In this document: positions 13,185 through 49,503 of the stretch, in pieces
Layout of the letters: the number at the start of each line of letters is the position of its first letter
Position numbering within the stretch: position 1 is the first letter of the stretch
Program-made: the position numbers and the translations under genes
Assembly (NCBI RefSeq): GCF_018350175.1
Contig: NC_058368.1
Location: 87,050,001 to 87,114,000, forward strand
Direction of reading: 5' to 3'
DNA from: Felis catus
Taxonomy: Eukaryota
DNA: 64,000 nucleotides
Notes under the pieces: model-generated
What the model was told of the DNA's origin: nothing
The model's database searches: none
What the model saw: only the letters and a program-made list of their open reading frames with translations

Positions 13185-13319
13185 AGAGATAGATCCAATT
13201 TTAAATCAACTTCCTGAAAGTGAGTTTTTTCCCCTACCATTGACTTATTTTGTTAGATAGTAGACACTATTACATACTGAAAATTTACCAATTAACTGAG
13301 TTGGACCATTAGCATATAA

Positions 13320-13900
13320 ACTCTAAAAAGGCCTGGGTACTGTGTCTTTCATATCTGTGCCCTCAATGCTCAATAATTGTTGAACAAATAAATGCATTTC
13401 TTAAAGGAGATAAGACAAACATAAGTTCAATGATGTGTTACAAACTGCATGTACCTAGTAATAAGATACAGGGTATAATGGAAGAGATCATCAATTAATT
13501 AAAAAAAAATCTCTCCATCTAGTAAGCAAGCCATATCAGCAGTGCATAGGTAGCAGAAAATTAATATGGAAAGAAGTGGGTAAACTATGCAGAATTGTGT
13601 ATAGTTTACATACGTAGGAAAAGAAACGACAGGAATTAAAATAATCCCTGTTCCATTTTGTGATATCGAAAAGAGCAAAAAAGAACCAAAAGCAGGGACC
13701 TTTTGATTTAGTTCTGATGTGTTCATTTTGAGGCTGTTTTAACACACCCAGGTGGAGAAGTAAAATACATAGCTGAACATGAGATGGGAATAGAAAATGT
13801 CTTTGTTGAAGTATAAATCTGGGGGCCACCTGTAAATATATTCTACTTTAAATTGTGATTAAGTCAAAACATAGTTGCCATTCTCAAAAACCTACTAAAG
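13320..13900. mobile_element. L2 relic fragments
   Basis: L2 3'-end-like atgctcaataattgttgaacaaataaatg and gtataaatctgggggccacc. Confidence 0.45.
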
Positions 13901-14593
13901 AGAGAAATACAAAAAATCAGAAACTTGTTAAACAGGAGGAAAAGTGCAGCAATAGAGATAAACTCGGTGTGTAATGGGACTCACACAGGAGACTTGACCA
14001 CAATAATCCATGGTCTATTGAAAAAGTAATGCCACTGAGGTTTAGAGTTTGCTATTTCTGTTTTGAGCAAATGGCCAAAATATTTCAATCTCTGCAAAAT
14101 AAAACTTATAATAATACCATATAGCAGATAATTATGCTTGTACATTGTAAATATGTTGTACATTCTGACATGCTTCATCATGTTCCTACCTTATTTACCC
14201 ATTCATATTTACCACATATCATCTGGGTAAGCAATGTGTTATGAGAATGCAGAGTAGGGGCAGGCATATAATTATGGCTATTAAATGCAATAAAATTTAT
14301 GAACCAACTTTATTAAAAGTCAAATGCCTAAGACAGTGATCTAATTTTAATTTGGGTTGCTCAATATTGTACATTTTGGTTTGTACATAGTGCAAAGGTT
14401 ATGCAAATTGTTCAGGTCACACAGCTATTATGTGATGAAATGAGCATTCAAACTCAAAAATTCAAATGCTATTGAATTTTTTCTACCAAAACCCACTATA
14501 GGTTTATGAACATAACCAAATAATTTATTGAGTCATCATCCATTAAATGAATCAGTCTTAATAACTGCCTCCTAAAAAAAAAATTCTTGATAA

Positions 14594-15526
14594 TCATGTT
14601 TCACTGAGCCATAATGTTCTATCAAGAATTTTTTTCATTGCTGCCTTTACTTCTTTGTTTCTCAGGGTGTAGATGAGAGGGTTCAGTATGGGGGTCACCA
14701 CAGTGTAGAAAAGGGAAACAAACTTTCCTTGGTCTTTGGATCTGCTCTTGGCTGGCTGCAGGTACATGAAGATGATGGTTCCATAGAAGATTATGACAAC
14801 CATTAAGTGGGAGGAACAGGTCCCAAATGCCTTGTGTCATCCGATGGCTGACTTGATCTTCAGTACTGCTCTGGCAATGTTCCAGTAGGAGATCAGGATG
14901 AGTGATAAAGGCACCACCAGGAATAAAACACTAGCCGCAAATAGCTCCTCTTGATTGAAAGTCGTTTCCACACAAGCCAACTTGATGAGCACAGGGACCT
15001 CACAGACAAAATGATCCACTTGGTGATGCCCACAGAAAGGCAACTGCAGGGTGAGAGTGGACTGTATAAGAGTGGTAGCTACCCCACTGAGCCATGCCAC
15101 AGATGCCAGGGTATGACAGAGGCTGGGGCGCACGGCAAAGGCATAATGTAGAGGACGGCAGACAGCGATGTACCGATCACAGGACATCACAGCCAGGAGG
15201 ACACACTCCGTGGATCCCAGGGCAAGAGAGACATAGAGCTGAACCACACAGCCACCATAAATGATGGACTTATCTGAACCACCCAGGTTGACTAGAAGCT
15301 GAGGAATAATGCTGCTGGTGAAACAGAGGTCCAGGAGGGAGAGGTGGGAGAGGAAAAAGTACGTTGGGGTGTGCAGTTTAGAGTCCAAGAGGGAAACTAG
15401 GATGATGGTAACATTGCCTTGGTAAAGACACAAGATTACCCCAAAAAGAACCAGCTCTAGCTGAGGCCGGTCACAAAAGCCTACCAAAATGAACCCAGGG
15501 AAGGTGCTGTCATTGGTCAAACACAT
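14594..15526 (-). pseudogene. OR2G2: Olfactory receptor family 2 subfamily G member 2-like pseudogene
   Basis: Motifs [59 protein letters not shown] and [12 protein letters not shown] match recalled OR2G2. In-frame TGA at 14837-14839 separates ORFs 14837-15526 and 14594-14803 (same frame, 933 nt in total). TM1 is 4 codons short (LYQGN). PMYFF is changed to PTYFF. Confidence 0.9.
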
Positions 15527-16069
15527 TACTCTTGCTGTGATTATTAACTTCAGAGTGATAAAGTCACATGAAACAGAATCTGCAGGGATTTTATATCAAT
15601 TCCTTCACAGTTAAGGTCTAAGTGTTGAAAAATAAGACTTTGGATGTAGGTAAAGATAAAGAGCCAATGTAGAGAATACCATGTGCAATGTCACTTATTA
15701 TCCCATGAAGTGGCATATGTGGTCTGTGGATCATAGGTTTTCATTCTACCTTGAGGACAAAATAAAAGTCAAAATGCATCAAGGATAAGTCTTCCCCTCA
15801 GTGTCTTATCAATAACATTTTTTAATAATAATAATAATAAAATTTTGTAGGAAATGTGGGAATTCAAAACACCATACTGTATTCTCAGAATCTATCAAAT
15901 GGATAGGTAAGTAAGGTAAGAACATGATGAAATGTCAGAATGTACAACATGTCATCTGGGTAAGCAATGTGTTATGAGAATGCAGAGTAGGGAAAAGAAT
16001 CTATAGAGGGAAAATTTAGATTAAGTCAAGGGTAAGATTATATCTTGCTCTTAAAAAAATGAGAAGGAA

Positions 16070-16222
16070 GGAACGCATGGGTGCCTCAGTCAGTTGAGCA
16101 TCTGACTCTTGATTTCAGCTCAGGTCAGAATCCCAGGGTCATAGGATCCAGTCTCCATATGGGGTTCCATGCTGAGGGTGTAGCCTGCTTGGGATTCTCT
16201 CTCTGTGTCTGCCCCTCTCCCC

Positions 16223-16277
<55 letters not shown>

Positions 16278-16283
16278 ACAAAA
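16070..16283 (+). mobile_element. Can-SINE, older subfamily with long (CT)n
   Basis: gggtgcctcagtcagttgagc head; TSD aaaaatgag. Confidence 0.9.
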
Positions 16284-16585
16284 ATGAGGAGAGCAATAAA
16301 AAAAACAGAATTTCACGATGGTAAAAATGAGGACAGAAATGGATAGTACACTATATAATGCCATCAGATAAATGAACTAAACTAAATTTGAGGTGTGATT
16401 ATTGCATATGCTGGGTATGCCATATAACAGAATATAATATTTACAAGGTAAATTTGAGCCATTTTTTCAAAGACCATAAACATTCGTAAACATTATTTGG
16501 ATAGAAGAGGTTCTTGTTCGGAGGGTTTTTGTTGGGTTTGAATTTTCATTTTCAAGATAAATATGACTATACAATATAGAAGATT

Positions 16586-18760: not shown

Positions 18761-19267
18761 GTAAAGAAATAAAACATTGGAAATAGGTAAAGAGAAAGTG
18801 TTAAAACAGAGAATACTAGAGTAAAACAAAAGTTAGAATGTATTCAGGTTAATGTTTTCTCCACTTTTGTCACTATCAAATATATTTACATATAATTTAT
18901 ACATATATGGTATGTGTATATAAAATTCAACGTGACTTCACACACTGTTCAAGACATATTTTTCTCTTTTCAGCAACAGGTTTTAAGGTACTTTATCGAC
19001 ATTAGATGTATAACTATTACTTAACTATTTCTCATTGGACATTATATCAATTAATGTATCCACCAGTATTTATTCAATAGATACTGTGTTTCAGACTGTA
19101 TGCTAGATATCAGGAATATGACAATAAAAATGCATAAATTTTGTTATCATGAACTTTGTTGCCATCATGAGACCAAAAAAATAAGCACAATAAGAAGTTT
19201 TAGGTGTGACTGCATGGAAAATCTTAATTGCATTCTACAATGACTAACAAAAGTGAGGAAGAAGGAT

Positions 19268-47750: not shown

Positions 47751-48513
47751 TGGTCTATCCCACATGTTGAAAATATTTAGGTGAAGGGAAGATTATATTG
47801 TCAAAGAATTTTTTTTTCTGGGTCTATAGGCCAAATCCCAAATCAATAAGGTTGAATTAGTAGAAAGGCAAATTTCTAGCTTAATCTAATTTAAACAACA
47901 ATATAATGAGTATATATTTCAAAATGTGGAGTATTACCTTGGGATAAAACACATTTTGTGGGAATATTGAAACAATTTTGAATGACCACTACTCAAAAGT
48001 ACTTGATAGGGATTTGTATACTAGATAAATGAGGCCAGATGCCCTGTAATATACCTATGAACTTGGATTTTGTACATTCTAAATAAACAGTCTGAAACTA
48101 AGAGTAATCCCCAAATTATATTCAGAAATTCTTTTTTCACATTTTCAGGCTATAAAACATTACTTTATCTAACTCCATTTTCACAATAGCCCCTCAACTC
48201 TATAGGATGGGTATTTTCATACCCACTGAAAACAATAATGACAGTAAGAGAAACTACATGAGTTAACCATTGTCATGTAGCTAGTCATTGGTAGAGTGAA
48301 GACAGATGATCAGTAGCTAAACTTCTCATTTACCTAATCCTTGTAAGTAAGCTATAAAAATATAATAACATGATAAAATACATACTGACACAGGAGTTTG
48401 GCTACTCAGAAATAAAATAAACTTTACCATTTCTTCAGAATTAAAAGCATATCATGGTTTGCTTCCATTAAGCAATTCTCCAGTTTCCATCATCTCTTCA
48501 AATTCCTTTTTCT

Positions 48514-49445
48514 TTAATCTTTCCCTATCATCTTCCTCAGTGCCCCTTTCATGTCTTTATTATGTAATGTGTAGATGAAAGGATTTAGAGTTGGAGTGAC
48601 AATTCCATAGAGCAAGGCCATGAACTTGTCCTGGTCCTGGGAGGTGGCTGCAGTGGGCTGCAGATAAGTGGCCATAGCAGTGCCATACAAGAGAAACACC
48701 ACCACCAGATGTGAAGAGCAAGTCCCAAGGGCCTTTTGGCGGCCTTCATGCGACTAGATCTTCCACATAGCCTGAGCAATGCAGATGTAGGAAATAAGAA
48801 TGAGAGAGGCACCAGCAGTAAAAATGCGCTAACCAGGAAGAGTTCCATCTGATTAAATGTGGTATCCACACAAGCAAGTTTGAGGAGAACTGGTACTTCA
48901 CAGAAGATATGGTCTATAACATTCCTTCCACAAAGAGGAACCTGTGTGATGAGCACAGTCTGCACCAGTGAGCTAACCAAGCCGGTTAGCCAGGTTATGG
49001 CCACCATTTGCCAACTGATGCATGGATGCATGAGAACAGTGTAGTGCAAAGGCCAGCATACTGCCACATAGCGGTCAACAGCCATGACTGCAAGGAGAAT
49101 GCATTCTGTGGAACCCATTGCCAAGGACACATACAGCTGACCAACACAGCCTCCATAGGTTATTGTCTTTTCTGGACCCTGCAGGTTAAACAGCAGCCGG
49201 GGAACTGTGCTGGTGGTGTAGCAAAGGTCCATTAAAGACAAGTGAGTGAAGAAAAAATACATTGGGGTGTGGAGCCAGGGATCCAGATGAGCCAATATAA
49301 TGATGGCAATATTGCCAAGCAGAGTCAACAAGTAGAAAAACAGGATGATAACAAAAAGGGTCATCTTTAACAGAGGTTGCTCACAGAAGCCCAACAGGAA
49401 AAATCCATCAAAGGAGCTGACATTAGGAATAACCATACTTTTCAT
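48514..49445 (-). pseudogene. Olfactory receptor family 2 (OR2G-like) pseudogene
   Basis: NVS glycosylation site, LHTPMYFF, MAVDRYVAVC, DHIFCEVPVLLKLAC. Frameshift in the (TC)n run at 48802-48809. The corrected frame reads [31 protein letters not shown]...[14 protein letters not shown], with TAG at 48754-48756. ATG at 49445 or 49436. Confidence 0.92.
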
Positions 49446-49503
49446 TGCATTTAGACAGAATAGGAATCTATATATACTCTCATCATCTTTCCTAGGTTCC
49501 AAC

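Follow-up and report, generated by a model that had tools for sequence, protein, structure and literature searches.

The window, a 64,000-nt stretch of cat (Felis catus) DNA, carries an inactivated olfactory receptor gene lying between two related stretches of noncoding DNA. The features that make up this arrangement are as follows.

14153..14206, minus strand: putative donor of the inverted half; its reverse complement matches 15899-15950 at 48 of 54 positions, with 4 transitions and one 2-nt gap
14207..14218, plus strand: donor stretch skipped at the join, 12 nt, 9 of 12 identical to 15940-15951
14219..14259, plus strand: putative donor of the direct half, 41 of 41 identical to 15952-15992
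14594..15526, minus strand: OR2G2-like olfactory receptor coding exon, a pseudogene, identified by Pfam domains (7tm_4 and 7tm_1), homologues, alignment and reading frames
15899..15950, plus strand: inverted half of the putative insertion, aligned to the reverse complement of 14153-14206
15951..15992, plus strand: direct half of the putative insertion; one A-to-G difference at 15951, perfect over 15952-15992

The OR2G2-like exon

The receptor search used a query read through with X at the stop; 2,307 of 8,000 scored candidates passed, and the best 120 of the 2,307 were used. Among these 120 the top entry was a longer fused model (58%). The best full-length, single-receptor matches were named "olfactory receptor 2G2-like" and came from Panthera onca, P. 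pardus and P. tigris (93-94%) and from Crocuta and Suricata (89%). The OR2G2 identity proposed in the initial annotation therefore holds in NCBI's form, "2G2-like," on the strength of the closest full-length relatives and the 7tm_4 domain. Two lesions interrupt the exon. In TM1, 4 codons are deleted in frame, and a TGA stop stands at 14837-14839, corresponding to residue 230, which is Arg in most relatives. In an alignment with nine carnivore relatives, only the window protein had the 4-residue deletion and the residue 230 stop; Panthera, hyena and seals keep an intact frame. Since the window protein alone among the aligned relatives carries these lesions, the gene was presumably lost after the split from Panthera. 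A scan of metagenomes with a 14-protein OR2G2 alignment returned 58 candidate stretches from 2 loci, 62% and 39% identical; these were rejected as orthologues and are paralogues whose similarity to the window is confined to the receptor coding sequence.

Several smaller observations concern receptor sequences in the window. A perfect 16-bp inverted repeat with a 27-nt loop (14577-14592 and 14620-14635) straddles the stop codon of the OR2G2-like frame; AT microsatellites aside, the window has few other perfect stems of comparable length. The window protein reads KIL-D-R where seven relatives have Gly in place of the Asp, a change that would perfect this stem, which hints at quasi-palindrome correction. 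The three Panthera proteins have a longer C-terminal tail that corresponds to a shifted frame of window positions 14594-14620 past the stop, while the window and hyena proteins end in SET; the longer tails are apparently a Panthera-specific C-terminal frameshift. A second olfactory receptor pseudogene lies at 48500-49502 on the minus strand, 55% identical to the first and frameshifted near 48800.

A composite copy on the two sides of the exon

The right copy, 15899-15992, is 94 nt long and joins an inverted half (15899-15950) to a direct half, both matching a single stretch, 14153-14259, about 1.7 kb away. The initial annotation had described an inverted copy with 4 transitions and a 2-nt gap followed by a perfect 41-nt direct copy, and both descriptions were reproduced in coordinates and counts. 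BLAST within the window gave the two matches E-values of 1.7e-13 and 7.7e-18, and the chance expectation for an exact 41-nt pair in 64 kb is about 2e-14. The direct match reaches back across the skipped stretch (14207-14259 against 15940-15992, 50 of 53 identical), with its 3 mismatches all confined to the initial 12 nt. At base 15951 the copy has G, whereas either continuation of the donor would supply A. When multi-copy stretches were filtered out of the window self-BLAST, no low-copy self-match other than these two reached 28 nt at 86% or more. Another match, a 50-nt direct one between non-SINE stretches 3.1 kb apart (15630-15679 and 18767-18816; 78%, E of 1.6e-5), may be a fragment of some old repeat or may go back to an earlier duplication nearby.

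The window is rich in repeats, with 417 non-self hits in its self-BLAST, and by eye the flanks at 13240-13860 and 14300-14470 resemble what we take to be decayed L2 and MIR. Both stretches could on that account be relics of a dispersed repeat, or the right copy an assembly artefact, but we regard this as very improbable. No third copy of the 94-mer was found in the 64-kb window (nhmmer, E<=10), in which the donor is unique; neither copied segment matched a SINE or L1 copy of the window; Rfam returned 0 matches at E<=1 over 13200-16400; and an identity of 89-100% links just the two neighbours. Five transitions, an indel, a target-site duplication (TSD) and fillers are unlike what mis-assembly would be expected to leave, and the window contains 0 N bases. 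A donor lying within an ancient repeat would leave the local origin of the second copy unchanged.

The donor lies about 340 nt beyond the stop codon of the OR2G2-like frame and the insert about 370 nt upstream of its start codon, and neither touches the exon. No effect of the patch on the gene is shown; the gene was lost through lesions inside its coding sequence. Recombination between the direct arms would delete 1,733 nt including the exon. The suggestion that the repeats are a substrate for inversion or deletion of the exon is nevertheless a formal possibility only, given that the exon is still present and that the repeats are 41-54 nt long; mammalian homologous recombination is usually quoted as needing about 200 nt.

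Because the inverted arms flank the exon, they could also be breakpoint scars of a past inversion of 14153-15950 that carried the exon with it. Staggered breaks can leave inverted duplications at the ends of an inversion, and nhmmer extended the inverted alignment to 14240/15868, as though longer homology lay hidden beyond the arm. That extension was at chance level, since 265 of 1,500 random segments scored as well, and three other outward extensions of the arms were likewise rejected as chance (388, 286 and 500 of 500). An inversion would leave the TSD unexplained. It would also part the exon from the promoter upstream of it, and Panthera nevertheless retains an intact frame. We consider an inversion very improbable.

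The insertion site and its joins

The junctions of the right copy, and the part of the donor that corresponds to its internal join, carry the following features.

14151..14163, minus strand: left arm of an imperfect inverted repeat carried by the donor, the homology at the join; reverse-complemented, it agrees with 14207-14219 at 11 of 13 positions
14207..14219, plus strand: right arm of the same inverted repeat, the last 6 nt perfect
15885..15890, minus strand: predicted first-nick site TTCT/GA, L1-endonuclease-like, with two transition-type departures from TTTT/AA
15887..15895, plus strand: 5' copy of the 9-nt TSD, AGAATCTAT; 1 of 2,190 control positions as good
15896..15898, plus strand: 5' filler CAA, absent from the donor continuation
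15993..15995, plus strand: 3' filler AAA, a very short A tail or a copy from the flank
15996..16004, plus strand: 3' copy of the TSD, AGAATCTAT, completing a 9-nt direct repeat that brackets the right copy

The TSD was absent from the initial annotation. Each of its copies lies 3 nt from the end of homology of the right copy. With 3-nt slack, a flanking word this long was found at the single control position in 2,190 given above; with 5-nt slack the count was 18 of 9,100, which includes the present locus and several positions in simple sequence. At the ends of the left copy there was no flanking repeat word of at least 4 nt within 5 nt. A TSD caller was also applied to 23 SINE copies, but several of its calls were doubtful and it was excluded from the evidence.

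Because the TSD brackets the right copy, it marks that copy as the probable insertion and the left copy as its donor. The earlier proposal that 15899-15992 is the derived copy, a templated insertion whose source lies about 1.7 kb off, is thus upheld and gains a TSD. In the simplest history, about 100 nt would have entered at 15895/16005 and the target would have been duplicated in the process.

The opposite direction can be argued from the structure of the copies: the left copy would have been inserted from the right, or would be a plain direct duplicate whose first half was later inverted by template switching. The 94 nt on the right are contiguous, while on the left 11 nt are used twice (15940-15950 corresponds both to 14153-14163, inverted, and to 14207-14217, direct). 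A looser flanking 9-mer surrounds the left copy (14128-14136 and 14268-14276, with gaps of 16 and 8 nt; 17 of 2,190 controls as good), which we counted against the direction proposed above, and a perfect 9-nt inverted repeat (14147-14155 and 14204-14212) lies at the same place. With the left copy derived, however, the tighter right-hand TSD, the fillers and the L1-like nick would all become coincidences, and the 3 mismatches at the start of the direct alignment are what preexisting imperfect homology, rather than descent, is expected to give. We therefore judge derivation of the left copy improbable. Short repeats cluster just left of the donor, at 14128-14164, as 9-mers (14138-14146 and 14156-14164) and the inverted 9-mers named above; this cluster is possibly an older local template-switch scar.

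Hexamers within two transitions of the L1 consensus TTTT/AA, as the predicted nick site is, make up 1.05% of those in the window. The predicted empty site with both flanks had no match to any repeat copy in the window at E<1. The insertion site at 15881-15891 is itself a small palindrome with 5-bp arms and a 1-nt spacer, whose 7-mers match both donor halves, and it may have aided breakage or first pairing.

The internal join coincides with an imperfect inverted repeat in the donor. The pairing of 14151-14163 with 14207-14219 was the best non-self site in 14000-14400, and 8 of 128,000 window 13-mers were as close. This inverted repeat extends 2 nt past the copied stretch, so it is most likely older than the event and would have guided the join, with 12 donor bases lost. 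The initial annotation had placed a microhomology, ACAT, at the switch point. A microhomology-guided join stands, but because the donor holds the 11/13 inverted repeat, the homology is longer than ACAT.

At the outer joins, the donor's 3' end is AGGG, giving homology at the 3' join. Positions 15989-15996 are repeated at 16007-16014, which gives the AAA filler a possible template in the flank of the target itself; local repeats of such length occurred at 26 of 1,500 control positions. A local flank template for a filler is expected of Pol theta-type synthesis. For the CAA filler there was no local template within 30 nt, and an 8-nt match at 14618-14625 was rejected as its template since it is at chance level in 2.2 kb (an estimated 0.3 or so expected). 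When folding was compared with that of shuffles, the donor region had no extra structure (z of 0.15 and -0.26), while the insert region gave a z of -1.6. The donor values near those of shuffles argue against a special hairpin behind the choice of template. A short hairpin between the TSD and 15902-15908 could account for 2 of the 4 transitions.

Probable DNA-templated repair or possible L1 twin priming

The locus is probably an old proximal repair-mediated duplication with a chimeric acceptor that patched a DNA break. Its insert (94 nt) exceeds the 50 bp asked of that class, and its donor, about 1.7 kb away, falls inside the range of 50 bp to 5 kb on the same chromosome. The class is further defined by a sequence with one other place in the genome; within the 64-kb window the only other place of the insert was its donor. 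Which copy is the acceptor is settled in that class by an outgroup empty site or by a TE that the acceptor interrupts; here the TSD points to the right copy. The junctions carry the 11/13 join homology, AGGG at the 3' end, the CAA and AAA fillers and the 9-nt TSD, and a poly(A/T) run of 5 nt or longer is absent. Each half is complementary to the donor plus strand, and one half ends where the other begins.

With the copy, its orientation, the target duplication, the fillers and the join homology as observations, the priming and annealing steps may be reconstructed as follows. A germline double-strand break with 9-nt staggered 3' overhangs would have arisen some 370 nt before the OR2G2 start codon, perhaps through L1 endonuclease. 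DNA copied from 1.7 kb away on the same chromosome would have patched it by SDSA-like or Pol theta synthesis, each broken end priming on the donor plus strand, one leftwards from 14206 and the other leftwards from 14259, the latter after first picking up AGGG/AAA of its own flank. Annealing of the two new strands at the 11/13 inverted repeat would then drop 12 nt, and fill-in would duplicate the 9-nt overhang to give the TSD. Alternatively, one end could have copied both halves with a strand switch, which would yield an identical product. The patch would have drifted neutrally afterwards.

The initial annotation had inferred a two-step template switch by MMBIR/FoSTeS or Pol theta. Its templated insertion is retained, but a single-strand MMBIR/FoSTeS U-turn is neither the only nor the simplest route, because a TSD and adjacent pieces from the same strand fit either two-ended extension of a staggered break or L1 twin priming. 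Breaks made by L1 endonuclease can end without a poly(A) insert, as described in the available text of 10.1101/2024.12.14.628481, an observation that fits an L1-cut break repaired by either route.

A TSD, an inverted 5' half, a direct 3' half, a few A's, an L1-like nick and a one-strand source would equally be the layout of twin priming, and this layout counts against repair. L1 ORF2p may have nicked the site and twin-primed a local, non-L1 plus-strand RNA antisense to OR2G2, with AAA as the remnant of a short A tail; a plus-strand transcript passes the donor before the target and so could still be tethered there. The 9-nt TSD is accompanied by a TTCT/GA nick on the strand that twin priming requires, with as few hexamers as close as stated above, and an inverted 5' half with a direct 3' half, a short internal deletion and microhomology is the commonest kind of twin-priming join; joins with deletions make up 61% and 66% in the data reported in the available parts of 10.1101/2021.12.20.472354 and 10.1101/2024.08.27.596794, respectively. 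Antisense olfactory receptor transcripts are described in human sperm and testis (PMC4703994, available part), and one somatic case of nearby pre-mRNA coinserted with an L1 is given in the corresponding part of PMC10191854.

Other features of the locus speak against an RNA template. The A run is only 3 nt long and has a template in flanking DNA, although decay of an older tail is possible; a 3' poly(A) tail is the one hallmark of twin priming not seen here, beside the TSD, the endonuclease-like nick and the inverted 5' and direct 3' parts that are. No AATAAA or ATTAAA lies 10-30 nt before 14259, the nearest being at 14098, 14280 and 14289. Tailless internal priming, in which the source RNA pairs with the target at the 3' junction (tailless retropseudogenes, PMC5322556), fails because the donor continues GCAGG after 14259, noncomplementary to a target whose TSD starts AGAAT. 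The insert is without L1 sequence. Among the proximal duplications inspected in PMC2671141, 0 of 39 looked retroposed. The available part of PMC4703994 makes no mention of OR2G2, and the antisense exons it describes start inside coding sequence. Weighing these points, we consider twin priming on a local RNA unlikely, though it is the main rival.

In the most specific form of this reading, the insertion would be a fossil of L1 ORF2p acting in cis: just after nicking the locus, the protein would have twin-primed that locus's own nascent antisense transcript, non- or oligo-adenylated, and inserted no L1 sequence. We hold this origin doubtful. If it were true, some mammalian "repair-mediated" local duplications would be RNA templated, and their marks would be a TSD, a TTTT/AA-like nick, an inverted 5' part and a donor situated upstream along the strand being transcribed. 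A thin literature search of partial coverage, which returned tailless retropseudogenes and L1 work, did not find a class of RNA-templated local duplications. The adjacency and opposite orientation of the two pieces, together with the TSD and the nick, would also suit an RNA-templated, twin-primed origin, and a single locus is too little to decide between that route and repair.

Related classes, significance and age

Proximal repair-mediated duplication is an already-described class (Pace, Sen, Batzer and Feschotte 2009, PMC2671141), and the best reading is that the present locus, with its two-piece acceptor, is a further member. That study placed 824 of 1,136 human duplicons within 5 kb and found 192 in dog. 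It counted 20 two-donor chimeras, with a TSD at 6 of 39 inspected proximal junctions and poly(A/T) at 0 of 39, and the available part of its Table S1 includes a 91-bp acceptor that was copied from 1,512 bp away and is flanked by a 13-bp TSD. The present locus shares with these duplications an insert within 50-619 bp, a single donor locus less than 5 kb away (mean in that study, about 1.2 kb), microhomology and short fillers, along with the occasional TSD, no poly(A) of 5 or more and two-piece chimeras joined at microhomology. It differs in that its donor pieces are 12 bp apart and in opposite orientation, whereas same-chromosome second donors in PMC2671141 were 289-3,432 bp apart; Table S1, in its available part, has no orientation column, and two-donor cases closer to this one may exist in its remainder. 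A related class, cited in PMC2671141, is that of the "doublets" described by Thomas et al.

Three other systems share part of the pattern. Complex germline MMBIR templated insertion (MMB-TI), in the available part of PMC8421209, is inherited and gives multi-template insertions whose copying runs first in reverse, then forward; two people carried 33 and 26 complex events, respectively; reverse-then-forward copying, interrupted microhomology at the joins and inheritance are common to both. Unlike MMB-TI as described there, the cat locus has a TSD and an L1-like nick, and it records an old, diverged event rather than a variant of recent date. L1 twin-priming 5' inversions (the Ostertag and Kazazian model; 10.1101/2021.12.20.472354 and 10.1101/2024.08.27.596794, available parts) resemble the locus in TSD, nick, inverted-then-direct order, short deletion and microhomology but differ from it in that the locus has no L1 body, no poly(A) tail or signal, a very short insert and a source next door. 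The third system is that of templated sequence insertion polymorphisms (TSIP), as far as the available text of PMC5110952 defines it; their donors are distant, unlike the one here. Class 1 has a TSD of at least 5 bp and an L1-like site, both seen here, but it also needs a run of 10-40 A's preceded at 10-30 nt by a poly(A) signal, both absent here. Class 2 shares microhomology and fillers without poly(A) but has no TSD and a distant donor, whereas here there is a TSD and the donor is 1.7 kb away.

A scar of about 100 bases in noncoding DNA beside a dead receptor gene, probably old and harmless or neutral, carries little weight alone. Because one insertion keeps the TSD, the L1-like nick, both fillers and the join homology, it makes a clean teaching example, and these features accord with the suggestion by Pace et al. 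that breaks made by L1 give rise to local duplications (PMC2671141). It might also serve as a presence/absence marker in cat phylogeny, if an empty site is found. A larger weight would follow only if TSD-flanked, 5'-inverted local copies recur genome-wide with a strand bias towards RNA templates.

The insert differs from the donor by 5 transitions and one 2-nt indel in 94 nt; 5 of 94 is 5.3% (95% interval, 1.7-12.4%). The two arms had been noted as unequally diverged, an unexplained puzzle. This loses its force on testing, as the difference is not significant whether 15951 is left aside (5 of 52 against 0 of 41; Fisher P = 0.064) or counted (5 of 52 against 1 of 42; P = 0.22), and when 6 random changes in 94 nt were simulated, a perfect run of at least 41 nt arose in 20%. 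The substitution rate used in PMC2671141 is 2.2e-9 per year, which is primate calibrated and may be too fast for felids. At this primate-calibrated rate, the event would be roughly 12 million years old (range, 4-28). The Panthera split dates to about 11 million years ago, and on these figures the insertion may precede it, in which case the patch may have coexisted with an intact gene.
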